This document shows, piece by piece, positions 1,839-23,989 of a stretch of 36,717 nucleotides of DNA. Source of the DNA: Chiloscyllium plagiosum. Its lineage: Eukaryota. The notes beneath the pieces were generated by a model. It worked only from the letters and a program-made list of their open reading frames with translations. It had not been told where the DNA came from and searched no databases. How positions within the stretch are numbered: the first letter of the stretch is position 1; every line of letters begins with the position of its first letter. The position numbers were made by a program, and so were the translations under genes. The stretch is from assembly GCF_004010195.1 (NCBI RefSeq), contig NC_057755.1:3167197-3203913 (forward strand), read 5' to 3'.

Positions 1839-1880
1839 CTGACTTAAACTCTTAGTGTCAAGCCCGAACCTCGACCCAGT
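1839..1880 (-). CDS. 42-nt microexon TGSRFGLDTKSLSQ
   Basis: ctaacatccaaatgttttggtgatttcttttcag|ACT...CAG|gtgagt; only phase 0 is open. Confidence 0.75.
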
Positions 1881-2444
1881 CTGAAAAGAAATCACCAAAA
1901 CATTTGGATGTTAGCAGTGGCACTATTGCCAAATACACTGGAATTAATTTACTGAGAAAATGCAAAGGACGTAGTTATTTGGGACAATGTGATGGAGTGC
2001 TGCACTATTGAAGGGTCAGTACTCAGGGAGTGCCGCACTGTTGGAGAGTCAATACTGAGGGTGCGCCAAACTGTCTGAGGGTCGGTACTGCAAGAGTATC
2101 GTGCTCAGAGGATCAGTACTGAGGGAGCGCTGCACTGTCAAAGGGTCAGTACTGAGGGATCACTGCACTGTCAGAGGGTCAGTACTGAGGGAGGGTCACA
2201 CTGTCAGAGGATCAGTGCTGAGGGGGCGCTGCACTGTCAGAGGGTCAGTACTGAGGGAACACCACAGTGTCAGTGGGTCAGTACTGAGGGAATGCCGCAT
2301 TGTTGAAGGGTCAGTACCGAGAGAGTGCCGCACTGGCGGAGGGTCAGTACTGAGTGAGCGCTGCACTGTCAGAGGGTCAGTAATGAACATGTTCAGAAAG
2401 TGGCATGAGTCTACTTTGTGTGAACAAAGCTGTTTCCCACTCAC

Positions 2445-2486
2445 ATGAGTTAAACTCTTGCTGTCAAGCCCGAACCTCGACCCAGT
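2445..2486 (-). CDS. 42-nt microexon TGSRFGLDSKSLTH
   Basis: Same branch point and acceptor; donor CAT|gtgagt. Confidence 0.72.
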
Positions 2487-3183
2487 CTGAAAAGAAATCA
2501 CCAAAACATTTGGATGTTAGCAGTGGCACTGTTGCCAAATACACTGGAATTAAGTTACTGAGAAAATGCAAAGGATGTAGTTGTTTGGGACAATGTGATG
2601 AAGTGCTGCACTATAGAGAGTCAGTGATCAGGGAGTGCAGCACTGTTGGAGAGTCAATACTGAGGGAGTGCCACACTGTCAGAGGGTCAGCACTGCGAGA
2701 GTACAGCACTGTCAGAGGTTCCGTCCTGAGGGAACACCACACTGTCAGAGGATCAGTACTGAGGGGACGTTGCACTGTCAGAGGGTCAGTGCTGAGGGAA
2801 CACTGCACTGTCAGAGGGTCAGTGCTATGGCAACACTGCACTGTCAGAGAGTCAGTACTGAGGGGGCGCTGCACTGTCAGCAGGTCAGTACTGAGGGAGT
2901 GCTGCACTGTCAGAGGATCAGTACTGAGGGGGCGCTGCACTGTCAGAGGGTCAGTACTGAGGGGGCGCTGCACTGTCAGCGGGTCAGTACTGAGGGAATG
3001 CCGCACAGTTGGAGGGTAGGTACTGAGGGAATGCCGCACTGTTGAAGGGTCAGTATCGAGGGAGTGCCGCATTGGCGGAGGGTCAGTACTGAGTGAGCGC
3101 TGCACTGTCAAAGGGTCAGTAATGAACACGTTTAGAATGTGCCATGAGTCTACTTCTTGTTAACAAAGCTGCTTCCCACTCAC

Positions 3184-3225
3184 CTGAGTTAAAGTCTTTC
3201 TGTCAATGCCTAACCTCGACTCTGT
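3184..3225 (-). CDS. 42-nt microexon TESRLGIDRKTLTQ
   Basis: CTAAC branch point, ttttcag acceptor, CAG|gtgagt donor. Confidence 0.75.
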
Positions 3226-3926
3226 CTGAAAAGAAATCACCAAAACATTTGGATGTTAGCAGTGGCACTGTTGCCAAATACACTGGAATTAATTTACTGA
3301 GAAAATGCAAAGGATGCAGTTGTTTGGGACAATGTGATGGAGTGCTGCACTACTGGAGAGTTAGTACTGATGGAGTGCTGCACTGTTGGAGAGTCAGTAC
3401 TGAGAGAATGCTGCAGTGTCCCAGGATCAACACTGAAAGAAAGCTGCACTGTCAGCGGATCCCAGGATCAATACTGAAAGAAAGCTGCACTGTCAGCGGA
3501 TCAGTACTGAGGAAGCATCGCACCAGCGAAGGGTCTACACTAAGAGAGCTCTGTGCTATTGGAAGAATTATACTGCAGGAATGCAGCATTTTCAAGCAGC
3601 AATAGGTGCTGCACTGTCAGAGGGTCATTACTGAGGGCATACTGCCCTGTTTCAAAGGTGGGGGCAGTACTGAAGGAGCAAAGCACCATTGGGGGCAGTA
3701 CTGACAGCACACAGGTGGTCCATTATGAGGCACCTACACTCTTTTGGGAGGCATGACTAAGGGATAGCTGCAATGTCAATGGTGTCACAATCAGATTAGA
3801 TACTAAAAGAGACCGTCTGACTCCTTTCAGTGTGCTTCTTATAGTCATGTTGGGAAACATAATGGATAATTTGTGTACAGCAAGATCCCTCAAACAGCAT
3901 CATGACAAAAGTTCAGAAAGTGCAAT

Positions 3927-6500
3927 AGAATATAGAACATTACAGTGTAGTAGTACAGGCCCTTCAGCCCTCGATGTTGCACTGACTATCTGAAGCCCAC
4001 CTAATCTACACTATTCCATTCTCATCTAGCCATCACCATCTGAGAAAAAGGCTCTCACTACCCAAACCTCTGATTATCTTATACATCTCAATTAACTCAC
4101 CTCTCAACCTTCTTCTCTCTAACAAAAACAGCCTCAAGTCCCTCAGCCTTTCCTCGTAAGACCTTCCCTCCATATCAGGCTCCATCCTATTAAATCTCCT
4201 CTGAACCATTTCCAAAGCTTCCACATCCTTCCTATGATGTGGTGACCAGAACTGTACATAATACACCAAACGTGGCCGCACCAGAGTTTTGTACTGCTGC
4301 AGCATAATCTCATGTTACCGAAACTCAATCCCTCTACCAATAAACACACCATATGCCTTCTTAACAACCTTATCAACTGGGTGGCAACTTTCAAGGATCT
4401 ATGTATCTGGATGCAGAGATCTTTCTGCTCATCTCCACTGCCAAGAATCTTACCCTTAGACCAATATTCCGCATTCCTGTCACTTCTTCCAAAGTGAATC
4501 ATCTCTCACTTTTCCATATTAAACTCCATTTGCCACTTCTCAGCCCAGCTCTGCAGCTTATCTATGTCTCCCTGAAATCCACAACTCTACCGACCTTAGT
4601 GTAATCCGCAAATTTACTAATCCATCCTTCTCTGCCCTCATCCAGGTCATTTATAAAAATGACAAACAACAGTGGACCCAAAACAGATCCTTGCGGCACA
4701 CCACTGGCAATTGAACTCCAGGATAAATATTTCCCATCAACCACCACCCTTTGTCTTCTTTTAGCAAGGCAATTTCTGATCCAAACCGCTGAATCACCCT
4801 CAAACCCATGCCTCCATGTTTTGTGCAATAGCTTACCGTGGGGAACCTTATTCAAAAGCCTTTACTGAAATCCATACACACCACATTATTGAGATTTATG
4901 AGAATGTGACCAAACAGGTGGATGAGGGTAAAGCAGTTAAAGTTTGTGAGGCACGACCTACCCTTCGCGTGTTGACTATCTCTAATCAACTTATTCATCT
5001 CTAGATGATTATAAATCCTATCTCTTATAACCCTTCCGACACTTGACCTACAACCAAACTATGGTTCATGGGTCTACAATTTCCAGGGTTGTCTCGACTC
5101 CTCTTCTTGAACAAGGGAACAGTATTTGCTATCCTCCAGTCTTCTGGCACTATTCCCATAGACAATGATGACAAAGATGAAAGCCAAAGGCTTGGCAACC
5201 TCTTTCCTGGCTTTTCATAGAATCCTAGGATAAATCCCATGTGGTCCAGTGGACTTATCTATTTTCAGACTTTGCAGAATTGCTAACACCTCCTCCTTAT
5301 GCACCTTAATCCCATCTAGTCTAGTAGCAAGTATCCCAATATTCCCCTCAACCACATTGTCTTTTTCTAGTATGAATACTGACAAAAAGTATTCATTTCA
5401 CACTTTATCTCCTCAGCTCCACGCACAACTTCCTACTACTACGCTTGAATGTCCCTAACCTTACTCTAGTCATTCTTTTATTCCTTATATACCTGTAGAA
5501 ATCCTTACGGTTCTCCTTGATCTTATCCACCAACAACTTCTCATGTCTCCTCCTGGCTCTTCTCAGCTCTCTTTAGGTCTTTCCTGGCTAACTTGTAACT
5601 CTCAAGCGCCCTAACTGAGCCTTCATATCTCATCCTAACATAAGCCTTCTTCTTCCTCTTGAAAAGAGATTCGACTTCCTTAGTAAACCACAGCTCCTGC
5701 GCTCGACAACGATCTCCCTGCCTGACCGGTACACACTTACCAAGGAGCCGCAGTAGCTGGTCCTTCAATAAGCTCCACATTTCAATTGTGCCCATCTCCT
5801 GCAGTTTCCTTCCCCATCCTATGCATCCTAAATCTTACCTAATCGCATTGTAACTGCCTTTCCCCCAGTATAACTTTTGCCCTGTGGTATGTACGTCATC
5901 TTTTCCATTACTAAAGTAAACATTATTGAATCATGGTCACTATCACCAAAGTGCTCACCTATCTCCAAATCTAACACCTAACCAGGTTCATTACCCAGAA
6001 ACAATTCTAATGTGGCCTTGCTCTTTGTTGGCCTGTCTACATACTGTGTCAGGAAACTCTCCTGCACACATTGAACAAAAACTGACCTATCTAAAGTACT
6101 TGAACTACAGTATTCCCAGTCAATATTTGCAAAGTTAAAGTCTCCCATAACAACTACCCTGTTACTCTCACTCCTATCAAGGATCATCTTCACTATCCTA
6201 CCCTCGACATCTCGAACTATTTGGAGGCCTATAGAAAACTCCCAACAAGGTAACCTCTCCTTTCCTGTTTCTAATCTCAGCCCATACTATCTCAGTAGGA
6301 GAGTCCTCAAATGTCCTTTCTGCAACTGTATTACTGCCCTTGTCTCAAAGTGCCACACCACCCCCTCGTTTACCATTTTCTCTGTTCTTACTGAAATATC
6401 TAAATCCCAGAACCTGCTCTACCCATGTCTCTGAAGTGGCCACAACATCAAAATCTCAGGTACCAACCCATGCTGCAAGTTTACCCACCTCATTCCGGAC
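3927..6500 (-). mobile_element. CR1-clade LINE, 5'-truncated and degenerate (ORF2 endonuclease plus reverse transcriptase)
   Basis: Minus-strand ORF pieces GVPQGSVLGPLLFVIFINDLD...ISKFAD, VPEDWRIAN, VVVMGDFNFANIDW, RPRLVYYVQFWSPH. Flanked by gcaat at 3922-3926 and 6501-6505 (possible TSD). Confidence 0.93.
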
Positions 6501-6543
6501 GCAATGAGTCTACTTTGTGTTCACAAAGCCTTTTCCCACTCAC

Positions 6544-6585
6544 CTGAGTTAAAGTCTTTCTGTCAAGGCCTAACCTCGACTCTGT
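6544..6585 (-). CDS. 42-nt microexon TESRLGLDRKTLTQ
   Basis: CTAAC branch point, ttttcag acceptor, CAG|gtgagt donor. Confidence 0.75.
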
Positions 6586-6794
6586 CTGAAAAGAAATCAT
6601 CCAAACATCTGGATGTTAGCACTGTTACTGTTGCCAAATACACTGGAATTAATTTACTGAGAAAATGCGAACGATGTAGTTGTTTGGGACATTGTGAGGT
6701 TACTATGTTGCCTGCCAGTCACATGTACATGTTAACTGTTAACATGGGAATTCCTGCACATGTGAGATTCACAGTAGGAATTAATCAAAGTGAT

Positions 6795-6975
6795 CTACGA
6801 ATATCATCCATTGCGTTACCTGTCTACTGCTTTTGTCACGTATTCAAAAAACGTTGTCATGTTTGTCAGGAATGACATACCCTTCCTGAATCTATGCTGA
6901 CACATCCTGATTAACTGAAACTGTTTGGGCTGATGAGTTACCCTACCCTTGATGATAGACTCCAACAATTTCCCC
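6795..6975 (-). mobile_element. Short CR1 LINE RT fragment
   Basis: Translation GKLLESIIKGRV...QHRFRKGMSFLTNMTTFFEYVTKAVDR resembles the CR1 QHGF..GRSCLTNL motif. Confidence 0.8.
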
Positions 6976-7559
6976 AGTGCAAATTGTGGCAGTACAGAGG
7001 GACAGCTGCACAGGCAGGAGGTCAGTACAGAGGGAATACTGCACTCTCTGGCTGCAATATACAGAGAATACTGCAGTGTCAAGGGACAGCAAAGAGAGAC
7101 TATGGCACAATTTGGGGGTAAGTCCAGAGGTTGGGTGCACCTTCAGGAGTCAGTGCTGGGGGACTGCTGCACTATTAGTGGGGTAGTACACGTTACATGC
7201 TGCATCACTAGGGGTGAGTACTGAGACAGCAAACTCAAGGATTCTGCACTGAGATCACTACGCTGTTTTCAGACGTATGGTTAAGAGTGAGCTGCAATCT
7301 CAACCATGTCACTGTCCAGCGAGATGTTAAACTAAGTCTCTGTTCTCTTTTAGTGTACGGCCACTGTTCTCATGTAGGGAAATACAATGGCCCATTTGTG
7401 CAGCGCAAGATCCATTAAATAACACGATGATAAACGAGCACTTTCAGAAAGCAACTACACTAGGGCGACTTTTCTTTCTTGGTAAGGCCTCTTCCCTCTC
7501 ATCGGATGTATACTCTCCCTCAGCATGTTGCAATGTCTGGGTCAAATGCGCAGAGCGAG

Positions 7560-8574
7560 TGTAATGACATGGGGTAAACTCTCCTGCTTAATTTAAAACC
7601 AGCAACACAGAAAAGATTTATCCCATGTAGTAATCTGTAAACTTCGAGTGGCCAAGAACTATTTAAAGTAAAAATAACAACTTTATTTCTTAAATTATAG
7701 CAGAGAATAATTAACTAATAATTATTTACAAGTCCTTACTCTAACCTATCTTTTACCTTCCCTTCTATATTAGTAGTCTGATTAAACTCCCGATTATAAT
7801 TTACAAAACAAAACGCCTGATTAAAAACCAGGCAGCTTTCATTCTACTCTGTATTTCGGTCTTTTCTTCTGCTTGGGAATACTGTTTCACAGGTGACTGA
7901 TCGATAAAGGGACCTTTTAAGAGAATGATTTTCTGGACAATGCGCAGATGTTATTGGCTTGGCAGTTCTCCTCTCAATTATTTAATTTTCCCCAGTCTTG
8001 TACCCCCCCACCCCCAAAGCATCAGATTGTGTCATTGGCTTTTAAGATTGTCAATATACTCAATTCAAACTGGATCTGGGTATAATTTAAACTGATGGGC
8101 CTAATTTGAATCTGTTTTGTCATGGGCGGCACGGTGGCACAGTGGTTAGCACTACTGCCTCACAGCGCCAGAGATCCAGGATCAATTCCCGCCTCAGGGG
8201 ACTGACTGTGTGGAGTTTGCATGTTCTCCCCGTGTCTGCGTGGGTTTCCTCCGGGTGCTCCGGTTTCCTCCCACAGTCACAAAGATGCGCAGGTTAGGTG
8301 AATTGGCCATGCTAAATTCCCGAAGTGTTAGGTAAGGGGTAAATGTAAGGGGTAAATGTAGGGGTATGGGTGGGTTGCGCTTCGGCGGGGCGGTGTGGAC
8401 TTGGTGGGCCGAAGGGCCTGTTTCCACAATGTAAGTAATCTAATCATCTAGTCATTTCCAGGCAGCCAGCTAATTTAGCTTTCGACCAAGTGTTACATTG
8501 TTACCTCATTGAGAACGCTTGGTACTGTCAAGTAACTCTCTTAAAGGTACAGTACACCCTACATCTTCGTAACA
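7560..8574. mobile_element. Probable solo LTR containing a nested SINE
   Basis: Termini tgtaatga...tcgtaaca (TG..CA, short inverted ends); flanks gcgag/gggag; homologous to 22024-22738. Confidence 0.65.
8124..8446 (+). mobile_element. tRNA-derived HE1 / V-SINE family SINE
   Basis: A-box tggcacagtggttagc, B-box-like gatcaattccc, V-domain tgtgtggagtttgcatgttctccccgtgtctgcgtgggtttcctccggg, (taatc)n tail. Confidence 0.9.
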
Positions 8575-8863
8575 GGGAGTGCTAGACCATTAGGGGTGCA
8601 GGACAGAGAGGGTGCTGCACTGTCAGGGGTCCAGTGCTGAGATAGCAAACTCAGGCAGCTACAATGTTGATGGTGTCACTGTCACACGAAATCTGAATCC
8701 CAGGTTCTGTCTGCCCTCTATCACATTGCAGTCCATGATCAACATAACGTTCAATTTCTGATGAGAATGGTCTCTCAAATAACTTTATGATGAATGAGCA
8801 CTTTCAGAAAACAGGGACGTAAGGCTGACCAACCTGTCTTGGTAAAAGCCAATTCCTCTTTAC

Positions 8864-8899
8864 TGAATCTGAGAACTTCAACAAAATATCTGAGCCAAC
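8864..8899 (-). CDS. 36-nt microexon variant VGSDILLKFSDS (weak splice signals)
   Basis: tttgtttccag acceptor, gtaaag donor, 12 open codons; branch region replaced by a LINE fragment. Confidence 0.35.
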
Positions 8900-9878
8900 C
8901 TGGAAACAAATCATCTATCACTCTGTGTAAAAACCTTGCCCAAAAATATTCTTTGAACTTTACCCCCTCACCTTAAATTGAGTATGAGACATTTCAGGTC
9001 TGAGAGGATGCAGCATAGTCTGGAAAGAAATGAAGAAAACATTTGGATGTTAGCAGTCTCACTGTTGCTAAACACATTAAAATTAATTTACTGAGAAAAA
9101 CTCAAGGATACAGTAATTCAGGATTCTGGGAAGTTACCATGTAGCCTGCCAGTCACAGCTAAGAACTACATGGCAACCTGTGAACACAGGAAATCATTAT
9201 TACACCTAACATTCATAAAGATGCGCAAGACACAATCATGAATCTTAAAACCCAGGAAGCCATTCAGCACTCAACTGCACCATGGTGGCAGTGCAGAGGG
9301 AGTCAGCAAAGAGTGCATGCAGCTGTGTTGGCGGCAGCATAGAACAAGTGTTGCACCATCAGGAAGGTCTATACACAGGGAGTGTGCACAGTCAGGGAGG
9401 ACTCGACACAAGGAGTGTTGTACCAGAGAGACTGTATAGAGGGAATCCTGCACCAGAGACACTGTACAGAGTGAGTGCTGTACTATCAGGAAGTACTGTA
9501 CACAGGGAGTATTGCACCAGAGATAATGCATACAGGGAATCCTGCCCCATGGACACTGTACAGAGTGAGTGATGCACGAGCAGAGACACTGTACAGGGGG
9601 CAAAGGGCTGTACCATCAGAGAGAGCTTTACAGTGCAAGTGCTGCATCATCAGAGACCCTGTACCGAGGGAGTGCCGAACTGTCAGGGAGGACTGTATAG
9701 AGGGAGTGCCACACCATCTGTCTGCCCTCTATCACTACGCAGTCCCTGTTGTCATGTGATCAACATAACAACCAATTTCTGTACAGAATGATCTCTCAAA
9801 TAATATTGCGGTGAAAGAGCACTTTCAGAAAACAGGTATGTAAGGCTGACTAACTGGTAAAAGTTGATTCGCCCTTAC

Positions 9879-9914
9879 CGAAGCTATGAACTTCACCGAA
9901 ATGTCTGAGTCAAC
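9879..9914 (-). CDS. 36-nt microexon VDSDISVKFIAS
   Basis: ttaac branch point, gatttgttttcag acceptor, TCG|gtaagg donor. Confidence 0.6.
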
Positions 9915-10066
9915 CTGAAAACAAATCACCAAAACATTTGCATGTTAACAATGTCACTGCTGCCAAATGCACTAGAATGAATTAACTGAGAAAACGGTGA
10001 AGGTGTGATAGTCAGGACCCCATGAGATATGCTGCCTGTTAGTCACAGCTAAAAACAGCACGGCTG

Positions 10067-12924
10067 CATACAACATAGAACAGTATAGCACAGGAACAGG
10101 CCCTGTTCATGCTTAACATGACACCAAATTAAACAAGTTCCTGCTGCCTATCCTGGCCAATATCCCTACATCCCTTGCTTATTCACGGGTTTATCTAAAA
10201 GCCATTTAAACACCTCTGTCATATCTGTTTCTATCATTACTTCTGGCAGCGTTCCAAGCACCTATCACTCTGTGTAAACATTTTGCCCAAACACATTCTT
10301 TGAGCTTTCCCCCCCTCTCCCCCTCACTTCAAATTCATGCTCTTTAGTACGAAACATTTCAACTTTGGGATAAAAATTCTGACCGTCAAACCTATTAATG
10401 CATCATAATTTAATAAACTTCTAACAGCTCTCCCCTTAGCCTCTGCCCTCCAGAGAAAATAACCGTAGTCTGCCAGCCACTTCTGAGAGCTCATACCCTC
10501 TAATCTGGGCAGCATCCTGATACACCTCTTCTGCACGCTTTCCAAGGCCTCCACATCCTTCCTGTAGTTTGGCAATCCCACACTTTCCACCTTGGTCCTT
10601 CCAACTCACTAGAACATGCCGGCCCTGAATTCTGATTAGGAGAATTTTAAACAATTCCCACATGTGAAATGTAGACTTGCCCAATAGCAGCTCCTCCCAA
10701 TTAACACTCCCGAGCTTCTGGCTAATACTGTTATAATTTTCCCTCCCCCAATTTAGTACCTTCCCGCAAGGTCCTGATTTATCATTATTCATAACTGTCT
10801 TAAAACTTGAGGAGCTGTTTCCAAAATGCTGCCCCACTGGAAGATTAGTCACCTGGCCAGGCTCATTTGCCAACACAAGATCCAGTATGACCCCTCCTCT
10901 AGTTGGACTATCCATATTCTGTTTTACAAATTCAGCTTGCATATACCTAACAAATCTGTCCCATCTAAGCTTCTTGCTGTGAGGGAGTCACAGTCAATTT
11001 CACAGGAGTTAAAGTCACCCACTATGGCAAACCTGTTATTTTGGCATTATTCTATAATCCACCTATATATCTGTTCCTCAATGTCCCGGTGACTGTTGGC
11101 AGCCCTATAGTGTAATGCCATCAGAGTGATTTCACCTTTCCTATTTTTGAGCTCTACCCATATTGCCATGGTGGATGACCCCAGCAATATGTCCTCTCTG
11201 ACTACAACTGTGACATTCTCCCTGATTAATAATACAACTCTCCATCTTCTTTTACTTTCTTCTCTATCTCGTCTAAAACATCGAAACCCTGGAACACTGC
11301 CCAGGCCTGTCCTGTCCCTCTCTGAAACCAAGTCCCTGTAATGGCCACAACATGAACTGATGTCTTATGTCATGATCCAGGCTCTAAGCTCATCTGCCTC
11401 AGCCAAAATACTCTTGCACTGAGAAATAAACACAATCAAACCCCTAGCCCCACTGTGTTCATTAACTGTGTCCCTGTCTATTCTTCCTTTCAGACTTATT
11501 GATCATTATAACTGTCTTCCCCTCAATCTCTCAACTTGCTGCCCTGGTTCCCACCCCCCGCCACTCGAGTTTAAAGAGTAGTCCTTTGAGGATACTGGTT
11601 CCCCTCATATTAGGTACAACCCATCCCTCCTATACAGGTCACTCCTGTCCCAGAAGAGGTCCCACTGATTCAAGAACATGCAACCCTGTACCAGTGCCTT
11701 TGCCATGCACTTATCTGTCTTATTTTCCTGTTTTGACACTCACTAGCGGATGGCATCAGAAGTATTCCAGAGATTACAATCTTTGAGGTCTTGCTTTAAC
11801 CTGCTGCTAACTCCCTGAACTCTTGGTGTAAGACTTTATTCCTCACTTTGCCCGTAACATTGGTACCAACATATACCACAATGAATAGGGTAAATACACA
11901 AGGCTTTTTCCCCTGGGGTGAGGGAGTCCAGAACTAGAGGGCATAGGTTTAGGGTGAGACAGAAAAGATATAAAAGACCTAAGGGGCAACTTTTTCACTC
12001 CAAGGGTAGAAAGGGCTGCCAGAGGAAGTGGTGGAGGCTGGTACAATTGCAACATTTAAGAGGCATCTGGATGGGTATATGATTAGGAAGGGTTTGGAGG
12101 GATATCGGCCGGGTGCTGGCAGGTGGGACTAGTTTGGGTTGGGATATCTGGTCGGCATGGACGGGTTGGACAGAAGGGCCTGTTTCCGTGCTGTACATCT
12201 CTATGACTCTAAAACCTCGAACTCATCACCTTCTCCTTTAATGATGCCGTGCAGCCATTCAGTGGCATCCTTGACCCTGGCTCCAGGGAGACAACACACT
12301 CACCTGCAGTCTTGACTTTGAATGCAGAAATGCCTTTCTGCTCCCCTGACGAAAGAATCTTCCATCATTACCGCTCTTCCTTTCCTCTTCCTCCCACCAG
12401 TTTGTAAGTGGGACTCCGGTAGACTGCTGCACTACCTATCTGTTCTTTCAGGGCTGTCTGATGGTCACCACCCATTCCCTTCCTTCCTCTAGGCCCTTGA
12501 GCTGTGGTGTGACCTCTCTAAACTTGCTACCCACATAACTCTCAGCCTCGAGAATGTGGCATGGGAGCTAAGAGATTATGAGCTCCAGCTTCTGCAAATG
12601 GGAACCCTTCCTCCACGTGTGGTCACCCAGGACACAGACAGCATCCAGGTCTCTCCACATGTGACAAGCTGTATATTCCACTTGGCTGGCCTCTCCTGAC
12701 ATCTCTTACATTTATAATTATCCCTTTAGACTGGAACAAAGTTTTACAACACCTTCAGCTGGTGAAAAACAGTCCCTATTGTCAATTACTCACTAACCAA
12801 TCAGATTACCATGCTTTCCTGGGACATCTATCTTCTGTGTTATCCAAACTCTCAATCCCGCTCCCCCCTTACCAATTCCGTAGTTTCTGCCATCCCACTG
12901 GTCCCGGGGTAAGTCCTTGTAGGT
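10067..12924 (-). mobile_element. Internally deleted CR1 LINE (ORF1 remnant, EN domain, 3' end)
   Basis: Minus-strand ORFs SPTRGGVILDLVLANEPGQV and IWVELKNRKGEITLMALHYR; degenerate CxxCxMW..DH ORF1 motif at ~12620-12680. The host repeat unit resumes at 12925. Confidence 0.85.
11881..12210 (+). mobile_element. CR1 LINE 3' end nested in opposite orientation
   Basis: Near-identical to 15685-16020; ends in the ctctatgactct tail. Confidence 0.88.
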
Positions 12925-13588
12925 CCCTGTTAACATGAGAAATTACAATTATCACTATTCACATTCATAATGGAGCTAGCTATACAATCATGAATCCAAC
13001 AATCTAAGAAGCCATTCAGCCCTCGTCTCTTTACCACAGTGGCTGTAAGGGGGAGTGCTATACAATAAGGGGTTGCAGTGCAGAGGGAGTGCTGTACAAT
13101 CAGGGGAGGCAATAGAGACAGAGTGCTACACAATCACAGGGACAGTACCCAGGGAGTGCAGCACTGTCAGATGCCAGTACAAAGGGAGTACTGCAATGTC
13201 ACCAGGCAGTATAGACGGAATGCCATACCATCGGGAGAAGCACAGAGGGAGTGCTGCACTGTCAGGGCGGCCATACAGAGTAAGTGATGCACCAGAGTTG
13301 TCAGGCCTTAGACAGCAAACTCAGGGAGTCCGTATTGACAGCATTACACTGTATTGTGAGACATGATTATGGGAGAGCTACAATGTTGATGGTGTCACTA
13401 TCAGGTGAGATGTTAAACCAAGACACGTCTGCCCTCTTTCAGTGTTCAGTCACTGTTGTCATGTTGGGAAACACAATGGCCCATTTGTGCAAAGCAAGAT
13501 GCATCAAATAACACTATGCTAAATGAGCACTTTCAGAAAGCAGCTGTATGAGAGAGAGAGAGTGTCAGCAAAGTTTCGTCCAACTCAT

Positions 13589-13630
13589 TTGATCCACACT
13601 TCCCCTTTCAAATCTGACCCTTGACCCCAC
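13589..13630 (-). pseudogene. Dead 42-nt microexon copy (VGSRVRFERGSVDQ)
   Basis: Exact 42-nt spacing, but the donor reads atgagt (GT>AT) and the polypyrimidine tract is deleted. Confidence 0.6.
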
Positions 13631-14208: not shown

Positions 14209-14250
14209 CAGATCTGTATCCGTCTTCAAAATTACTGACTTTGTTCCTTT
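14209..14250 (-). CDS. 42-nt microexon KGTKSVILKTDTDL
   Basis: CTAAC branch point, ttcttttcag acceptor, CTG|gtgagg donor. Confidence 0.72.
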
Positions 14251-14560
14251 CTGAAAAGAAATGAAGAAAACATTTGGATGTTAGCAGTGTCACTGTTACC
14301 AAACACACTGGAATTAATTTCTCTTGAGTTACCAGTTAACATGGGAAATTCCCATTATCACTGCTCACATTCATTATTCTGTTAGATACACAATCATGAA
14401 TCACTGCGATAAATGCGAACTGTCAGAAAAAAGCTAAGCAAGGGAGACAAATGCGAGGTTACCCTGTAGCCAGCTGGTCACAGGTAGGAACTGCCTTGTC
14501 ACCTATTAACGTGGGAAACTACTATGATTGCTCCTCACATTTGTAATTATGTTAATGACA

Positions 14561-16020
14561 AGACGGCCTTTGTGTGGAGCCTCAGAAAATGGGGGAGATA
14601 TTAAATGAATATTTTGCATCAGTATTTACTGTGGAAAAGGATATAGAAGATATAGACTGTAGGGAAATAGATGGTGACATCTTGCAAAATGTCCAGATTA
14701 CAGAGGAGGAAGTGCTGGATGTCTTGAAACGGTTAAAGGTGGATAAATCCCCAAGACCTGATCAGGTGTACCCGAGAACTCTGTGGGAAGCTAGAGAAGT
14801 GATTCCTGGGCCTCTTGCTGAGATATTTGTATCATCGATAGTCACAGGTGAGGTGCCAGAAGACTGGAGGTTGGCAAACGTGGTGCCACTGTTTAAGAAG
14901 GGCAGTAAAGNNNNNNNNNNNNNNNNNNNNNNNNNNNNNNNNNNNNNNNNNNNNNNNNNNNNNNNNNNNNNNNNNNNNNNNNNNNNNNNNNNNNNNNNNN
15001 NNNNNNNNNNNNNNNNNNNNNNNNNNNNNNNNNNNNNNNNNNNNNNNNNNNNNNNNNNNNNNNNNNNNNNNNNNNNNNNNNNNNNNNNNNNNNNNNNNNN
15101 NNNNNNNNNNNNNNNNNNNNNNNNNNNNNNNNNNNNNNNNNNNNNNNNNNNNNNNNNNNNNNNNNNNNNNNNNNNNNNNNNNNNNNNNNNNNNNNNNNNN
15201 NNNNNNNNNNNNNNNNNNNNNNNNNNNNNNNNNNNNNNNNNNNNNNNNNNNNNNNNNNNNNNNNNNNNNNNNNNNNNNNNNNNNNNNNNNNNCTAGGGAG
15301 TGTTGCTGAACAAAGAGACCTTGGAGTGCAGGTTCATAGCTCCTCGAAAGTGGAGTCGCAGGTAGATAGGATAGTGAAGGCAGCGTTTGGTATGCTTTCC
15401 TTTATTGGTCACAGTATTGAGTACAGGAGTTGGGAGGTCATGTTGTGGCTGTACAGGACATTGGTTAGGCCACTGTTGGAATATTGCAAGTCTGGTCTCC
15501 TTCCTATCGTAAAGATGTTGTGAAACTTGAAAGGGTTGAGAAAAGATTTACAAGGATGTTACCAGGGTTGGAGGATCTGAGCCACAGGGAGAGGCTGAAC
15601 AGGCTGGGGCTGTTTTTCCTAGAGCTTCGGAGGCTGAGGGGTGACCTTACAGAGGTTTACAAAATTATGAGGGGCATGGATAGGATAAATAGACAAAGTC
15701 TTTACCCTGGGGTCGGGGACTCAAGAACTAGAGGGCATAGATTTAGGGTCAGAGGGGAAAGATATAAAAGAGACCTCGGGGCAGCTTTTTCACGCAGAGG
15801 GTGGTACGTGTTTGGAATGAGCTGCCAGAGAATGTGGTGGAGGCTGGTACAATTGCAACATTTAAGAGGCATTTGGATGGGTATATGAATAGGAAGAGTT
15901 TGGAGGGATATGGGCCGGGTGCTGGCAGGTGGGACTAGATTGGGTTGGGACATCTGGTTAGCATGGACGGGTTGGACCAAAGGGTCTGTTTCCATGCTGT
16001 ACATTTCTATGACTCTATGA
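14561..16020 (+). mobile_element. CR1 LINE (5'-truncated, spans an assembly gap)
   Basis: ORF pieces LNEYFASVFT, GEVPEDWRLANVVPLFKKG and RRLRGDLTEVYKIMRG; ctatgactctatga tail; atgaca at both ends. Confidence 0.92.
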
Positions 16021-16377
16021 CACACTCAAGAATGTTCCAGCCCAGGGAACCATTCAGCAGTCATTCATGTGACAGCTAGAGGGCTCCACTGTCAGGGGTC
16101 AGTACTGAGACAGCAAACTCAGGGAGTCTGCACTGACATCATTACACTGTTTTCAGAGACACAGTGAAGGAAGAGCTGTAATGTTGATGGTCAGATCTGA
16201 TGTTAAAGCAAGGCTTTGCCTCCCTTTCAGTGTAAAGTCACTGTTGTCATGTCAGTAAACATAACATCCAATTTATCCAAGTAAAATCTCTCAAATAACA
16301 TTGTGATAATTGACAACGTTGAGAAAAACAGCGATGCAGGGTGATGAATTGGTCACGGTCAAGATGTTTAACCTCAC

Positions 16378-16410
16378 CTGATCTGTTCTTATTGAAATTT
16401 TTGACACAGT
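16378..16410 (-). CDS. 33-nt microexon variant TVSKISIRTDQ
   Basis: gatttctttccag acceptor, CAG|gtgagg donor, 11 open codons; branch point diverged. Confidence 0.55.
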
Positions 16411-16639
16411 CTGGAAAGAAATCACCATACCATGTGGGTGCTGGCAGTGTCATTGCTGCCAAATACAATGGAATTAATTTCCTGAGAAAATGTCAAGGAT
16501 TCAGTAGTTCCAGACGCTGTCAGGTTACCAGCTGCTACCTGCACACTTACCTGTTAACAAATTACCCTGACTACTGTTCACATTCATAACCCTAGTTCCA
16601 CAACAATGAACGTTACAACCCAGGAAGCTATGCAGCACT

Positions 16640-17610
16640 CCCCTCTGTATCACAGTGGACAATCGGGGGGGGAAGGCTAGATATATTAAGCTGTCTCATG
16701 GTGGGCAATCAGGAGGATGCTGGATGTATTACGGTGGGCANNNNNNNNNNNNNNNNNNNNNNNNNNNNNNNNNNNNNNNNNNNNNNNNNNNNNNNNNNNN
16801 NNNNNNNNNNNNNNNNNNNNNNNNNNNNNNNNNNNNNNNNNNNNNNNNNNNNNNNNNNNNNNNNNNNNNNNNNNNNNNNNNNNNNNNNNNNNNNNNNNNN
16901 NNNNNNNNNNNNNNNNNNNNNNNNNNNNNNNNNNNNNNNNNNNNNNNNNNNNNNNNNNNNNNNNNNNNNNNNNNNNNNNNNNNNNNNNNNNNNNNNNNNN
17001 NNNNNNNNNNNNNNNNNNNNNNNNNNNNNNNNNNNNNNNNNNNNNNNNNNNNNNNNNNNNNNNNNNNNNNNNNNNNNNNNNNNNNNNNNNNNNNNNNNNN
17101 NNNNNNNNNNNNTATTACTCTGTATCATAGTGGGCAATCGGGGGGGAGGCTGGATGTATTACTCTGTATCATGGTGGGCTATCGGGGGAGGGGAGGCTGG
17201 GTGTATTACTCTGTATCATGGTGGGCCATCGGGGGGAGGCTGGATGTATTGCTCTGTATCATGGTGGGCAATCGGGGGGAGGCTGGATGTATTACTCTGT
17301 ATCATGGTGGGCTATCGGGGGAGGGGAGGCTGGGTGTATTACTCTGTATCATGGTGGGCCATCGGGGGGAGGCTGGATGTATTGCTCTGTATCATGGTGG
17401 GCAATCGGGGGGAGGCTGGATGTATTACTCTGTATCATGGTGGGCTATCGGGGGAGGGGAGGCTGGGTGTATTACTCTGTATCATGGTGGGCCATCGGGG
17501 GGAGGCTGGATGTATTGCTCTGTATCATGGTGGGCAATCGGGGGGAGGCTGGATGTATTACTCTGTATCATGGTGGGAAATTGGCGGGGGTGGGGAGGCT
17601 GGATGTATTA
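16640..17610. repeat. G-rich 43/47-bp minisatellite with a 133-bp three-unit higher-order repeat
   Basis: Unit TATTACTCTGTATCATGGTGGGCAATCGGGGGGAGGCTGGATG; the gctatc variant recurs every 133 bp; spans a gap. Confidence 0.92.
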
Positions 17611-18068
17611 CACAGTTACAGAGAACTGCACACAGCAAGGGCTCTGTAGAAAGAGTGTGCTGCATCATCTGGCTGGTCGTACAGAGGGTGTGCTGCACTG
17701 TCAGGAGGGGCAGCACACAGTGAGTGTTGCACTGTAAGGGAGAAATATACCGAGCTGGAGATGCACCTTCAGGGGGTCAGTATTGAGACAACAAGCTCAA
17801 GAAGTTTGTACTGACGACATTACGCTGTCTTCAGAGTTTCAAGGAAGTGAGAGTTGCAATGTTGGTGGGGTCACTGGCAGGCAGGGTAATAAACCAAGGC
17901 TCTCTCTCTGCTCTGAGTCGCTATGCAGTCCCTGTTGTCAGGGAGCCAACATAACTTTCAACTTCAGCAGGGAAAGATCTCTCAAATAACACAGCAACGA
18001 ATGAGCACTTTCACAAAACAGCCATGAGGTTGAAAAATCTGTCTTCATGATTGCCCATTTGCCCTCAC

Positions 18069-18108
18069 CAGATCTGTACTCTTCATCGCAAATCCTGTCC
18101 CTGACAGT
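18069..18108 (-). pseudogene. Dead microexon copy (TVSRTALAMKSTDP type)
   Basis: Donor gtgagg intact, but the acceptor AG is lost (forward ttgg instead of ctgg) and there is a small deletion. Confidence 0.55.
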
Positions 18109-18734
18109 TTGGGATTCAAATCACCGAAACATTTGGATGTTAACAGTGTCACTGTCATCAAATACAATGTACATTATAATTAATTTACTGAGAAAACGGG
18201 AAAGATGTAGTATTCAACGCCCCATGAGACACCATGTAGACTGCCCGTCACAGGTAAAAACTGCAGGGTTACCTGATCGCCTGGGAAATTACCATTATCC
18301 TAGCTTACATTCATATTGGAGTTAGCTACACAATCTTCAATCTAACAACTCAAGAAGAGATTCAGACCTCATCGCTGTACTATGGGGGGCAGTACAGAGG
18401 GAGGGCTGCACTGTTAGGGGCAGTACACAGGGAGTGCTGCTCTATCAGGGGATAAATGCTTCCACAGCAAACTTCGGGAATCTGTACTGACGGCATTACA
18501 CTGTTTTCAGAGACATGACTGAGAGCTGCAATGTTGACAGTGTCAATGCAAGCAAGATGTTAAACTATGGCTCTGTCGGCCTTCTTTCAGTGGGCAGTCA
18601 CTGTTGTCACATGGTCAACACAATGTCCAACTCCTGCTGGGACAAATATTATAAATGTGTGAGAAAGGAGCATTTTCAGGAAACAGCTATGCGAGTACAT
18701 CAAATCTGTCTTGATAAAGCATCTTCTCCCTCAC

Positions 18735-18776
18735 CAGATCTGTACCCTTCTTCAAAATGCCTGACTTCGCCCCTTT
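18735..18776 (-). CDS. 42-nt microexon KGAKSGILKKGTDL
   Basis: CTAAC, tttctttccag, CTG|gtgagg. Confidence 0.75.
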
Positions 18777-19499
18777 CTGGAAAGAAATGAAGAAAACATT
18801 TGGATGTTAGCAGTGTCAGTGTTACCAAACACACTGGGATTAATTTCCAGAGAGAACACTCAGAATTCATTAGTTTGGGACCCCATGGGGTTACCATGAA
18901 GCCGATTAATTACAGCTAGTAACGGTGCGGTTACCTGTTAACCCGGAAAATTGCCTTTATCATGTCCACATTCAAAACGATGCTAGATACATAATCATGA
19001 ATCTTACAATGAATGAATCCATTCAGCCCCGACCCCTTTTACCAGGATTGCAGTGCAGATGGAGTACTGTGCCTATGGGATACAGTACAGAGTGAGTGCG
19101 GAAGGCAGCATCATCAGGGAGACTATACACAGCGAGTGTTACATGTTCAGGAGGCTATGTGGAGGGAGTACTGCACTGTCAGGGAGGCTGAACAGACTGA
19201 ATGTCTGTGGGTAAGCACTGAGACAGCAAACTCAGCAAATCTGTACTGACACCATTACCCTGTTTGCAGAGACACAATTAAGTGTGAGCTGCAATATTGT
19301 CACTGTCACTATCAGGAGAGATGTTAAACCAAAGTTCTGTCTGCCCTTTTTCAGTTTTTTATGTTGTCATGTGGGCAACATAAATGTCCAATTTCTGCTG
19401 AAAAAGATCTCTCAAATAACACTGCAATGACTGAGCACTTTCCAAACACAGCTACATGAGGCCAGCCAAATGTCACAGTAATGGTCCATTTGCCCTCAC

Positions 19500-19541
19500 C
19501 GGATCTGTACTCTTCATCGCAAGTGCTGTCCTCGACACAGT
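19500..19541 (-). CDS. 42-nt microexon TVSRTALAMKSTDP
   Basis: CTAAC, gatttgtttccag, CCG|gtgagg. Confidence 0.75.
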
Positions 19542-20127
19542 CTGGAAACAAATCACCAAAATATTTGGATGTTAGCAGTGTTGCTGATGTCAAGTACATT
19601 ATATTTTAATTACTGAGAAAACAGGAAAGATGTAGTATTCAACGCCCCATGAGATACCATGTAGACTGCCCATCACAGCTAAAAACTGCAGTGTTACCTG
19701 TTCACCTGGGAAATTACCATTATCCCAGTTTACATTCATAATGGAGTTAGTGGACAATCATACATCTAACAACCCAAGAAACCATTCACACCTCATCCCT
19801 GTACTATGGGGCAGTACAGAGGGAGGGCTGCACTGTCAGGGGATAAATGTTTATACAGCAAACTCAGAGTCTGTACTGACAGCATGACACTGTGTTCAGA
19901 GACACGATTCAGAGCTGCAATGCTGACAGTGGCAATGCAGGCAAGATGTTAAACTGTGGCTCTGTCTGCCCTGTTTCAATGTACAGTCTCTGTTGTCATG
20001 TGGTCAACATAATATCCAACTTCTGCAGAAACAAATATTTCAGAGAGCACTATGATAAAGGAGCACTTTCAGAAAACAACAACACAAATACAACAAATCT
20101 GTTTTGATAAAGCAATTTCTCCCTCAC

Positions 20128-20169
20128 CAGATCTGTACCCTTCTTCAAAATGCCTGACTTCGTCCCTTT
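20128..20169 (-). CDS. 42-nt microexon KGTKSGILKKGTDL
   Basis: CTAAC, tttctttccag, CTG|gtgagg. Confidence 0.75.
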
Positions 20170-21057
20170 CTGGAAAGAAACAAAGAAAACATTTAGATGT
20201 TAGCAGTGACACTGTTGTCAAAAACACTGGGATTTATTTCCTGACAGAACACTCTGAATTCATTAGTTTGGGACTCCATGAGGTTATCATGAGTCACAGG
20301 TAGTATCTGCATTGTCACCTGCAGACCTTTGAAATTATTATTGTACTGTCCACATTCAAAACTATGTTAGATACATAATCATGAATCTTACAAAGAATGA
20401 AGCCATTTAGCCCCCATCCCCTCTACCAGGATTGCAGTGCAGACGGAGTACTGTGCCTATGGGATACAGTACAGAGTGAGTGCGGACGGCAGCATCATCA
20501 GGGAGACTATACACAGCGAGTGTTACATGTTCAGGAGGCTGTGTGGAGGGAGTACTGCACTGTCAGAGAGGCTGAACAGACTGAATGCTGCATCATCAGT
20601 GGGTAAGCACTGAAACAGCAAACTCAGCGAATCTGTACTGACACCATTACCCTGTTTGCAGAGACACAATTAAATGTGAGCTGAAATGTTGACGGTGTCA
20701 CTATCAGGAGAGATGTTAAACCAAAGTTCTGTCTGCCCTTTTTCAGTGTGCAGTCACTGTTGTTATGTGGGCAACATAATGACCAATTTCTTCCGAGAAA
20801 GATCTCTCAAATAACACTGCAATGACTGAGCACTTTTCAAACACAGCTACATGAGGCCAGCCAAATGTCACAGTAATGGTCCATTTGCCCTCACCGGATC
20901 TGTTTTCAGTGTGCAGTCACTGTTGTCATGTGGGCAACATAATGACCAATTTCTTCCGAGAAAGATCTCTGAAATAACACTGCAATGACTGAGCACTTTT
21001 CAAACACAGCTACATGAGGCCAGCCAAATGTCACAGTAATGGTCCATTTGCCCTCAC

Positions 21058-21099
21058 CGGATCTGTACTCTTCATCGCAAGTGCTGTCCTCGACACAGT
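21058..21099 (-). CDS. 42-nt microexon TVSRTALAMKSTDP
   Basis: CTAAC, gatttgtttccag, CCG|gtgagg. Confidence 0.75.
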
Positions 21100-21686
21100 C
21101 TGGAAACAAATCACCAAAAAGTATGGATGTTAGCAGTGTTACTGCTGCTATGTACTCTATAATTAATTTACTGAGAAAACAGGAAAGATGTAGTATTCAA
21201 CATCCCATGAGATACCATGTAGACTGCCCATCACAGCTAAAAACTGCAGGGTTACCTGTTCATCTGGGAAATTACCATTATCACAGCTTACATTCATAAT
21301 GGAGTTAGCTGGACAATCATACATCTAACAACCCAAGAAGCCATTCACACCATATCCCTGTACTAGTATAGAGTATAGAGGAAGTGCTGCACTGTCAGGG
21401 GATAAATATTTTGACAGCGATCACCGGGAGTCTGTACTGATAGCATGACACTGTGTTCAGAGACACGATTCAGAGCTGCAATGCTGACAGTGGCAATGCA
21501 GGCGAGATATTAAACTGTGGCTCTGTCAGCCTGTTTCAATGTACAGACTCTGTTGTCATGTGGTCAACATAATATCCATCTTCTGCAGAGACAAATATTT
21601 CGAATAGCATATGATAAAGGAGCACTTTCAGAAAACAGCTAAGCGAGTATGACAAATCTGTTTTGATAAAGCAATTTCTCCCTCAC

Positions 21687-21870
21687 CAGATTAGATTAGA
21701 TTAGATTACTTACAGTGTGGAAACAGGCCCTTCGGCCCAACAAGTCCACACCGACCCGCCGAAGCGTAACCCACCCAGACCCATTCTCCTACATTTACCC
21801 CTTCACCTAACACTTCGGGCAATTTAGCATGGCCAATTCACCTTCAAAATTTCTGACTTCTTCCCTTTTT
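21687..21870 (-). pseudogene. Dead KGT-type microexon split by a SINE insertion
   Basis: Donor intact at 21686; exon body interrupted at ~21691-21842; acceptor AG lost (ttgg). Confidence 0.7.
21688..21842 (-). mobile_element. HE1 SINE 3' fragment
   Basis: Reverse complement of ~8297-8445 with an (attag)n tail. Confidence 0.88.
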
Positions 21871-22023
21871 GGAAAGAAATAAAGAAAACATTTGGATGTT
21901 AGCAGTGTCACTGTTGTCAAATACACTGGGATTAATTTCCTTACAGAAATACTCCAGATGGATTAGTTTGAGACTACATGAGGTTACCACGCAGCCCACT
22001 AATCACAGCTAGTACCTACGCGG

Positions 22024-22738
22024 TGGTATGACACGGGGTAATCCCCTCTGCAAATTTAAACCAGCCACACAGAAAAGTTCACCTCACACCCTAATCTGTT
22101 AAAATTCGAGAGGCAAGCAACAATCCGAGAGGTCACTATTTAAAGGAAACATTCACAATTTCATTTTTTACGTACAACAGCGAATATTAAAACCAACAAC
22201 TGTTTACAACTCCTTTCTCTTAAACCGATCTTTTGCCTCCCGCTCAGCAATGCCGGTCCAGTTAAAAATCCTGATTATGATTTACAAAAATAAGATCACA
22301 TTTCAAAATACCAGTCAGCTTTATCAAGTCTCCTTTGTAGATTTTATCTCGGTCAGTTTTAATTTTCTGCTGCGCACATTTCTTATTGACAGGTACCTTT
22401 CAGAGAGTTCTTCAACTCGCAGTCTATATTTGTGATGTACTTGGCAGTTCCCCTTCTAACTGTTCAAAATGTCTAGTTTTATACCCCAAAACATCGGATT
22501 CGTTTCATTGCTTTAATATTATCAAAATCCTAAATTAAAATGTGCTTGGATTTCGGTATCTTGAGGTATAGTTTAAACTGACTGGCCAAATTTGACTTTG
22601 TTTCATGGCAACTCATCTGCAGCTGTTTATTTCCCAAGTGTTACATTGTTACTTTGTTCAGGAGTCTCTGTACTTCGTCAGTCCTTCTAGTTTTTCAATG
22701 CTCTTAAAGGTACAATACAGCTCCACATTTTAATAATA
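22024..22738. mobile_element. Second copy of the probable solo LTR family
   Basis: Colinear similarity to 7560-8574 without the SINE (atgacacggggtaa..., ccaagtgttacattgttac, ctcttaaaggtaca); inserted at gcgg/gccg in the repeat unit. Confidence 0.62.
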
Positions 22739-23318
22739 GCCGTTAACTGTTCACCTTGGAAATTATCAATATACAGTTCACATTCAAAACTACGCCAGAT
22801 ACATAATCATGAATCTTACAATGAAGGAAAGCATTCAGCCCTCATCCCCTTTACCAGGATTGCAGTGCAGACGGAGTACTGTGCCTCTGCGGTACAGTAC
22901 AGAGTGAGTGAGGAAGGCAGCATCATCAGGGAGACTATACACAGCGAGTGTTACATGTTCAGGAGGCTGTGTGGAGGGAGTACTGCACTGTCAGGGAGGC
23001 TGAACAGACTGAATGCTGCATCATCAGTGGGTAAGCACTGAGACAGCAAACTCAGCAAATCTGTACTGACACCATTACCCTGTTTGCAGAGACACAATTA
23101 AGTGTGAGCTGAAATGTTGATGGTGCCACGATCAGGAGAGATGTTAAACCAAAGTTCTGTTTGCCCTTTTCGAGTGTGCAGTCACTGTTGTCATGTGGGC
23201 AACATAATGACCAATTTCTGCCAAGAAAGATCTCTCAAATAATGAATGACTGAGCACTTTCCAAACACAGCTACATGAGGCCAGCCAAATGTCACAGTAA
23301 TGGTTCATTTGCCTTCAC

Positions 23319-23360
23319 CGGATCTGTACTCTTCATCGCAAGTGCTGTCCTCGACACAGT
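23319..23360 (-). CDS. 42-nt microexon TVSRTALAMKSTDP
   Basis: CTAAC, gatttgtttccag, CCG|gtgaag donor variant. Confidence 0.65.
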
Positions 23361-23947
23361 CTGGAAACAAATCACCAAAATATTTGGACGTTAGCAGTGT
23401 TGCTGATGTCAAGTACGTTATAATTTATTTACTGAGAAAACAGGAAAGATGGAGTATTCAACACCCCATGAGATACCATGTAGACTGCCCATCACAGCTA
23501 AAAACTGCAGTGTTACCTGTTCACCTGGGAAATTACCATTATCCCAGTTTACATTCATAATGGAGTTAGCTGGACAATCATACATCTAACAACCCAAGAA
23601 GCCATTCACACCTCAACCCTGTACTATGGGGCAGTACAGAGGGAGGGCTGCACTGTCAGGGGATAAATGTTTATACAGCAAACTCAGAGTCTGTACTGAC
23701 AGCATGACACTGTGTTCAGAGACACGATTCAGAGCTGCAATGTTGACAGTGGCAATGCAGGCAAGATGTTAAACTGTGGCTCTGTCTGCCCTGTTTCAAT
23801 GTACAGTCTCTGTTGTCATGTGGTCAACATAATATCCAACTTCTGCAGAAACAAATATTTCAGAGAGCACTATGATAAAGGAGCACTTTCAGAAAACAAC
23901 AACACAAATACAACAAATCTGTTTTGATAAAGCAATTTCTCCCTCAC

Positions 23948-23989
23948 CAGATCTGTACCCTTCTTCAAAATGCCTGACTTCGTCCCTTT
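23948..23989 (-). CDS. 42-nt microexon KGTKSGILKKGTDL
   Basis: tttctttccag acceptor next to the gap, CTG|gtgagg donor. Confidence 0.7.

Follow-up and report, generated by a model that had tools for sequence, protein, structure and literature searches.

A tandem array of short phase-0 exons in a probable MS4A/CD20-like gene of the bamboo shark Chiloscyllium plagiosum

Does a row of very short, mutually similar exons, each carrying its own splice signals, belong to a real gene, and if so, to which one, and by what route did it grow? We asked this of a window of 36,717 nt (C46:3167197-3203913; contig NC_057755.1) from the 3.56-Gb assembly of the bamboo shark Chiloscyllium plagiosum, a stretch of vertebrate DNA rich in satellites and in fragments of long interspersed nuclear elements (LINEs), in which such a row is read on the minus strand between positions 1839 and 23989 (the exons are numbered in transcript order). 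An earlier reading made from the letters alone, here called the sequence-only reading, had proposed a hidden series of frame-preserving microexons coding for a variable stalk or linker. We consider it likely that the array is instead the 5′ coding part of a gene of ~96 kb encoding a four-helix membrane protein of the MS4A/CD20-like family, and the locus joins two known kinds of system, an MS4A protein and a tandem array of cassette exons.

Anatomy and constraint of the exon array

A repeat search of the window returned a 62-nt family (D10) with 15 copies between 1879 and 23420 which, on the minus strand, is the branch-point and pyrimidine-tract region with its terminal AG; a 16th copy of the unit adjoins the run of N at 24001-24500 in the minus-strand printout. 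The full unit consists of a branch point, a pyrimidine tract, AG, a short exon and GT, and its 16 copies all lie on the minus strand and are specific to this locus. On alignment of the 16 copies, neighbouring exons proved homologous, eleven of them at 42 nt and all in phase 0. Every one of the 14 exons listed by the sequence-only reading was recovered in the place, order and strand it gave, including the full set of eleven 42-nt copies and the variants of 33, 36 and 36 nt. Two decayed copies (e03* and e08*) and two further in-frame exons (eM, 54 nt, and e12a, 48 nt; Table 1) were absent from its list. Three N blocks (14911-15292, 16741-17112 and 24001-24500) interrupt the array.

Among the 14 intact exons, frame 0 is free of stops throughout, frame 1 holds a stop in 14/14 and frame 2 in 5/14, in agreement with the earlier statement that only phase 0 is open across all exon types. 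An AG acceptor is present in 13 of the 15 acceptor regions covered (for the copy ending at 23989, the upstream side falls in the N block), and the branch point reads CTAAC in 12 of these regions, TTAAC in two and neither in one. The donors of the 14 exons are GTGAG in eleven cases and GTGAA, GTAAG and GTAAA in one case each. A strict composite pattern (CTAAC, gap, YYYYCAG, 33-48 nt, GTRAG) matched ten times, always on the minus strand, against 0.07 matches expected from 100 shuffles, none of which reached ten; as the copies are duplicates of one another, these matches are not independent events, and the figure speaks for the reality of the pattern and not for independent selection. All 17 intact pieces in the window, which supply about half of the predicted protein described below, are multiples of 3 in length and open in frame 0.

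Comparison between exon types (37 pairs) gave an identity of 0.61 in the exon itself, against 0.84 at positions -30 to -1, 0.78 at -60 to -31, 0.78 at +1 to +8 and 0.44 at +9 to +38. On the comparison set in advance, that of splice sites and frame against the flanking intron, the acceptor side and the donor were thus better conserved than the intron downstream. Within the exons there are only two distinct gap runs, of 3 and 6 nt, whereas only one of the nine runs in the 100 nt downstream is a multiple of 3; the 100 nt upstream hold a single run, of 4 nt. The contrast that had been drawn between arbitrary indels in the introns and a preserved frame in the exons therefore holds. As the identity of the upstream intron and donor and the exon gaps of 3 and 6 nt show, the splice signals and the frame are maintained while the peptide drifts.

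Some of the peptide is nevertheless kept. Across 34 units of three species, the module follows the consensus x-G-S-[K/R]-S-G-[I/L]-x-x-K-x-x-D-x, with G2 retained in 23 units, S/T3 in 31, K/R4 in 32, I/L7 in 32, K10 in 30 and D13 in 25. Differences between types are most frequent at the second codon position (K versus E: 5.5, 10.7 and 3.0 of 14 at the three positions). A hand count of the minimum changes among the four type sequences gave 7, 15 and 8 by codon position (chi-square ~3.8, 2 degrees of freedom, not significant); we keep this skew as a hint only.

A probable MS4A/CD20-like gene and its predicted products

The exons are already chained in a public predicted protein, P0019 (XP_043539104.1, LOC122544131, 361 aa), whose residues 9-217 are the exact chain, in genomic order, of 13 window exon translations (a T, a K and a T unit, then e07, e10, eM, e11, e12a, e13, e14, e15, e16 and eL). 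The model uses 11 of the 14 exons listed earlier together with eM and e12a, omits e09 and e12b, and is without the first coding exon and e01 (beyond the N block); it starts at the internal Met of e02 and reads 6 nt beyond the e02 donor. We regard P0019 as most likely the product of this very locus, since the chain is exact and the contig that carries P0019 has, at 12,823,346 bases, exactly the length of C46. The proposal that these are frame-preserving coding exons of one gene, with a modular region rich in K, S and T, gains from this chain and from the whale-shark isoforms described below, which differ by whole units. The array is not hidden, as had been claimed, since the locus is already publicly predicted as an uncharacterised protein; no published description of it was found. 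Our literature search returned nothing that deals with the loci or accessions concerned, with the tails of MS4A proteins in cartilaginous fish, or with duplicated exons of MS4A genes. Three MS4A genes have been noted in dogfish expressed sequence tags by Zuccolo et al. (2010, PMC2826416), in the accessible part of which the word 'repeat' does not occur.

The family assignment comes from eL, the 111-nt exon that follows the array, and from the sequence beyond it. In a protein search, the translation of eL with three flanking codons on each side matched seven proteins, namely the 202-aa bamboo-shark P0001 (92% identity) and six isoforms of whale-shark LOC125488063, all of which have a Pfam CD20-like domain. 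P0019 itself matches Pfam CD20 (PF04103) at 32.9 bits (E 8.4e-8; cut-off 27.9), over profile positions 2-89 of 156 only, and P0009, P0001 and P0002 score 30.7, 34.7 and 36.4 bits, respectively. Against solved chains, P0019 aligns with CD20 (6y92, E 1.2e-5; 6vja, E 2.6e-5) and with Fc epsilon RI beta (8k7t, E 3.6e-5; query residues 206-312), the alignment beginning in the eL juxtamembrane motif and running on through the helices. An AlphaFold2 model built from a 9-row alignment placed helices at residues 216-230, 236-267, 272-302 and 313-357 and is poor (mean predicted local distance difference test score 39.8, predicted template modelling score 0.21); we gave it no weight and did not take it as evidence of disorder. 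We also noted that eL encodes two Y-x-x-I motifs seven residues apart, a narrower spacing than that of the classical immunoreceptor activation motif.

The layout of the gene places the modules in an N-terminal tail, between a short first coding exon and the juxtamembrane exon eL. The first coding exon lies ~31 kb upstream (L014:8642-8704) and comprises an ATG, 63 nt in all, a GTAGGT donor and a phase-0 end, while transmembrane exons of 114, 57 and 114 nt, all in phase 0, lie 33-41 kb below the window start. All coding exons examined across the ~96-kb span are symmetric in phase 0.

The tail has a much narrower distribution in the searches than the domain. Of 122 matches to P0019 among 1.84 billion representatives, 120 cover only residues ~137-361 (from the last modules through the juxtamembrane exon to the MS4A domain), and the other two, confined to the tail (P0041 and P0131), are unrelated low-complexity repeat proteins. 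A tail-only search with residues 22-250 of P0009 returned the query itself and no other match. In the searches made, the tail thus appears to be without relatives outside the whale shark and the bamboo sharks, and none of five paralogues from sharks and a ray (P0010-P0014) has a 14-residue array. The protein resembles other MS4A/CD20-like members (CD20, Fc epsilon RI beta, MS4A12-like) in its domain, which scores above the curated cut-off, and in the match from the juxtamembrane segment through the helices; it differs from them in its array tail, which is particular to the bamboo-shark/whale-shark protein among those compared. Two cat-shark MS4A paralogue models, P0012 and P0026, contain two tandem copies of a 35-residue segment matching eL, a further instance of exon duplication in this family, located elsewhere. 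An MS4A12-like protein has its longest contig (8,145,935 bases) in common with the whale-shark orthologue, and in the bamboo-shark genome C46 carries a related exon at a distance of 2.5 Mb.

Related models give some indication of how the array is used. In a sister bamboo shark, the orthologue model P0009 (XP_072420739.1, 394 aa) comprises the first exon, nine K/T units, eM, e11, e12a and four E/G units, with the 111-nt eL left out; a model from a separate annotation, P0001 (GCC21597.1), starts at the eM Met, which it joins straight to the last unit and eL. For whale-shark LOC125488063, 12 isoforms (X1-X12) are predicted, with tails of 7 to 10 units; they vary in the presence of the final unit, of the final two units or of one inner unit, and in a 2-residue extension from a shifted donor. 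Apart from this extension, the isoform differences are whole 14-residue units, and skipping touches only three of them (the last two and the inner one), fewer than the free omission of any subset that the sequence-only reading had envisaged. Models X1-X3 and X5-X12 start in sequence matching the unit intron. All these models are named 'uncharacterized' or 'hypothetical'. The array is probably alternatively spliced, as seen only in the predicted whale-shark isoforms.

Origin of the units and competing explanations

A 201-nt unit query against the 3.56-Gb genome gave 17 matches, 15 in the window and two on the small contig C93702, a distribution on which we rejected an origin of the unit from a dispersed repeat or a transposon. 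Self-comparison revealed blocks of differing age: identity is 86.6% for a K/T pair of ~1.39 kb, 94% for a 3.8-kb block, ~84% for E/G units of 0.6-0.74 kb and 78-79% for older matches. Units of ~0.6-1.4 kb, exon and splice signals included, have been multiplied by local tandem duplication, and some copies are dead, through transposon insertion or through acceptor loss and frameshift. The first nine residues of the dead copy e03* equal a unit of P0009, and the insert that splits it (21690-21840, minus strand) is a young dispersed repeat (40/40 scored matches, from 496 candidates, at 93-100% identity on many contigs). The exon eM does not belong to the module copies; in alignment, its acceptor corresponds to intron sequence of other units, ~150 nt upstream of their exons, and eM looks like an exonised piece of a unit. 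A 33-nt minisatellite (1572-1776, 2012-2386 and 2605-3125) fills most of each intron between the last four module exons, and such arrays could, as an idea only, favour unequal crossing-over between units.

The unplaced contig C93702 (L002, 2354 nt) carries a further K/T-type unit that is not identical to any window copy over its full extent, with 98% identity to 20181-20903 over 722 nt and 88-93% identity to other copies. It is probably either a missing part of the N block at 24001-24500 or the other haplotype. This contig and the 500-N run upstream of e01 suggest that the array is incompletely assembled. As for its history, the window units match those of the sister species position by position (12-14/14 residues identical), and six whale-shark units are closest to each other (12-14/14) and far from the window units (5-7/14), with the last whale-shark unit pairing with e16 (11/14). 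Positional pairing within the bamboo sharks, together with self-similarity in the whale shark, would fit lineage-specific expansion or homogenisation, that is, a birth and death of exons.

How much of the array reaches the protein depends on where translation begins. Were it to begin at the eM ATG or later, most of the array would be untranslated, with the K/T exons in the 5′ untranslated region or in rare transcripts and only the last modules forming protein. The independent sister-species model P0001 runs from the eM Met to the last unit and eL, P0019 takes its start within e02, and most whale-shark models begin in sequence resembling a unit intron, all of which would suit this explanation. 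We nonetheless think it unlikely, as frame 0 is open in every intact K/T exon here, in P0009 and in the whale-shark models, and the first exon of P0009 has an ATG and a phase-0 end, with a counterpart here that has a GT donor. The 14-residue motif, moreover, is kept between bamboo sharks and whale shark, which points to selection on the peptide, and the dead copies illustrate that frame and acceptor decay when unused. A different doubt is whether the exons are neutral pseudo-exons, created by segmental duplication of an intron with one former real exon and chained by the models for their good-looking signals. Young duplications (94% over 1268 nt; 98% to C93702) need no selection to have intact signals, two of the 16 copies are already dead, and third codon positions hold no excess of the differences between exon types. 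Older copies, however, still have AG, GT and frame at an intron identity of 78-87%, the exon gaps preserve the frame as described, and the models of three species agree on the frame in which the exons are joined. In one model, the donor used lies 6 nt past a weakened GTGAA, a shift that ab initio chaining would be unlikely to make. As far as is known, the NCBI pipeline issues extra isoforms only with transcript support, and the twelve whale-shark isoforms would accordingly imply transcript data. On balance, we find neutral pseudo-exons quite improbable.

The stalk or linker of the sequence-only reading, an extracellular or linker-type region like those of mucin-like proteins or the products of schistosome micro-exon genes (MEGs), would draw on the K/S/T-rich composition and the short, symmetric exons. 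It is highly improbable in view of the position of the modules, which precede a segment that in CD20 and Fc epsilon RI beta aligns with the cytoplasmic, N-terminal juxtamembrane part; a strongly basic tail would also fit the inner side of the membrane. In the MS4A family, the N-terminal tail is cytoplasmic, as are both ends of the protein. We infer that the module tail is likewise cytoplasmic, because it precedes the segment resembling the CD20 N-terminal part and is basic.

Several points weigh against the preferred reading of the array as the translated, alternatively spliced tail of an MS4A/CD20-like protein. All the protein models are computational predictions, and a single C. plagiosum model was found, so that alternative splicing is shown by the whale-shark proxy only, for three units. 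The models disagree on the start codon, with P0019 starting inside e02, P0001 at the eM ATG and most whale-shark models in sequence that resembles a unit intron, and e01, e09 and e12b are in none of the models examined. Topology and disorder are weakly grounded, resting on family knowledge.

The comparison that had been drawn with schistosome MEGs stands as an analogy of exon symmetry only: in both, the exons are short, symmetric and multiples of 3, and skipping keeps the frame. The accessible part of a preprint on MEGs gives their exons as 3-81 bp and their products as secreted proteins (bioRxiv 10.1101/2023.06.21.545858). MEG products are secreted parasite proteins, whereas the exons here encode the tail of a vertebrate membrane protein and have no sequence relation to MEGs. 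The shark exons are also tandem duplicates of one unit including its splice signals. Micro-exons make up about half of P0019, the remainder being ordinary exons. We rejected membership of the MEGs, the product being a CD20-like shark membrane protein and not a secreted flatworm protein. Tandem exon duplication is otherwise familiar from human IgG3 hinge exons, titin PEVK exons and the duplicated alternative exons of catfish CD45. The shark array shares with such arrays its neighbouring homologous exons of equal size and phase, a copy number that varies between lineages, and cassette-type inclusion (here predicted). It differs from them in lying in the N-terminal tail of a tetraspan protein, in its 42-nt unit, and in having 60 nt of upstream intron better kept than the exon.

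Proposed role and genomic surroundings

Each 42-nt exon, in phase 0 at both ends, encodes one 14-residue module of the N-terminal tail. In the mechanism we propose, the copy number and type of units would differ between shark lineages through unit birth and death. Phase-0 symmetry in all the coding exons examined would let any cassette be included or skipped with the frame intact, and the cell could thereby vary the number of modules. The tail would be disordered, with a repeated short motif and S/T beside basic residues, and might be a multivalent scaffold for docking or phosphorylation, with gene copy number and splicing determining its valency. We offer this role, that of a disordered cytoplasmic scaffold of adjustable valency, tentatively, as the likeliest among possible ones.

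It is rather doubtful that the tail is, beyond this, a fast-evolving scaffold of variable copy number selected for diversity, in which birth and death of units and cassette splicing would tune the number of G-S-[K/R]-S-G-[I/L] motifs on an immune-type MS4A subunit. Hints in this direction are the module differences, which show no third-position concentration, the upstream intron, which is kept better than the exon, and the expansion of different module types in the whale shark and the bamboo sharks. If true, carpet sharks would have, as a peculiarity of their own, an exon-level counterpart to receptor tails in which the number of signalling motifs varies.

The locus opens no long-standing question. 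It does offer a clean case of a vertebrate gene growing a repeat protein region exon by exon, where the branch point, the pyrimidine tract and the donor are duplicated along with the exon, the 42-nt size protects the frame, and dead copies stand beside live ones. The gene would also be an unusual MS4A member, with a cytoplasmic tail whose size could change through splicing as well as in the genome. CD20 and the IgE receptor beta chain are both MS4A proteins, and their tails matter for signalling. If the number of modules affects signalling, bamboo sharks, which are kept in aquaria, would be a tractable test system.

Table 1. Features of the exon array in the window, in transcript order (positions are those of the window; asterisks mark dead copies).
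Feature	Position	Strand	Remarks
Run of 500 N directly upstream of e01	24001-24500	.	Assembly gap or masked stretch; array may continue here
e01, 42-nt K-type module exon	23948-23989	-	AG, GTGAG donor, open frame 0; peptide identical to e05; upstream intron lost in N block; upstream of P0019 start, hence outside that model
e02, 42-nt T-type module exon	23319-23360	-	GTGAA donor
e03*, dead K-type copy	21687-21868	-	Acceptor CAG changed to CAA; exon split by ~150-nt insert
e04, 42-nt T-type module exon	21058-21099	-	In P0019
e05, 42-nt K-type module exon	20128-20169	-	In P0019
e06, 42-nt T-type module exon	19500-19541	-	In P0019
e07, 42-nt K-type module exon	18735-18776	-	In P0019
e08*, dead T-type copy	18069-18109	-	Without AG acceptor; 41 nt (1-nt deletion); stop in frame 0
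e09, 33-nt variant exon	16378-16410	-	Splice sites intact; in none of the models examined
e10, 42-nt K-type module exon	14209-14250	-	In P0019
eM, 54-nt phase-0 exon with internal ATG, not a module copy	12873-12926	-	In P0019
e11, 36-nt variant exon	9879-9914	-	GTAAG donor; in P0019
e12a, 48-nt phase-0 exon, unit-type acceptor	8972-9019	-	In P0019; 15/16 residues equal P0009
e12b, 36-nt variant exon, 72 nt after e12a	8864-8899	-	GTAAA donor; in no model examined; use doubtful
e13, 42-nt E-type module exon	6544-6585	-	In P0019
e14, 42-nt E-type module exon	3184-3225	-	In P0019
e15, 42-nt G-type module exon	2445-2486	-	In P0019
e16, 42-nt G-type module exon, last of the array	1839-1880	-	In P0019; closest to last whale-shark unit (11/14 residues)
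eL, 111-nt exon, phase 0 at both ends, conserved MS4A juxtamembrane segment	1200-1310	-	Aligns with start of solved CD20 chains

Upstream, the gene lies head to head with SMARCB1, exons of which were found at L015:4322-4579 and 7906-8211 on the plus strand, ~24-28 kb above the window end (Pfam INI1 DNA-binding E 2.7e-19, SNF5 E 5.8e-11) and ~5.5 kb from the first coding exon of the MS4A gene, on the opposite strand. Inside the first intron of the MS4A gene, two plus-strand open frames (28639-28968 and 29183-29824) resemble the halves of an intronless rhodopsin-type receptor, with ~214 nt of repeat-like sequence between them. The first half matches Pfam 7tm_1 at E 2.8e-4 and 20.9 bits, below the cut-off of 30.5, and the second has no Pfam match; these frames may be a nested gene or a broken copy.

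The remainder of the window and its flanks are marked by repeats. A 3.9-kb array of a 29-nt satellite (133 copies) occupies 30646-34510, and a 34-nt satellite at 2-1016 continues for several kb below the window start, in the 34-kb intron that precedes the transmembrane exons. Runs of N are also found outside the window, including 22 kb between the window start and those exons. The introns contain LINE reverse-transcriptase fragments at 4033-6286 (minus strand), 14559-15888 (plus strand) and 36149-36655 (minus strand), two of which match Pfam RVT_1 (E 6.8e-9 and 7.6e-10), and one such fragment accounts for the 3.3-kb intron between e13 and e14.

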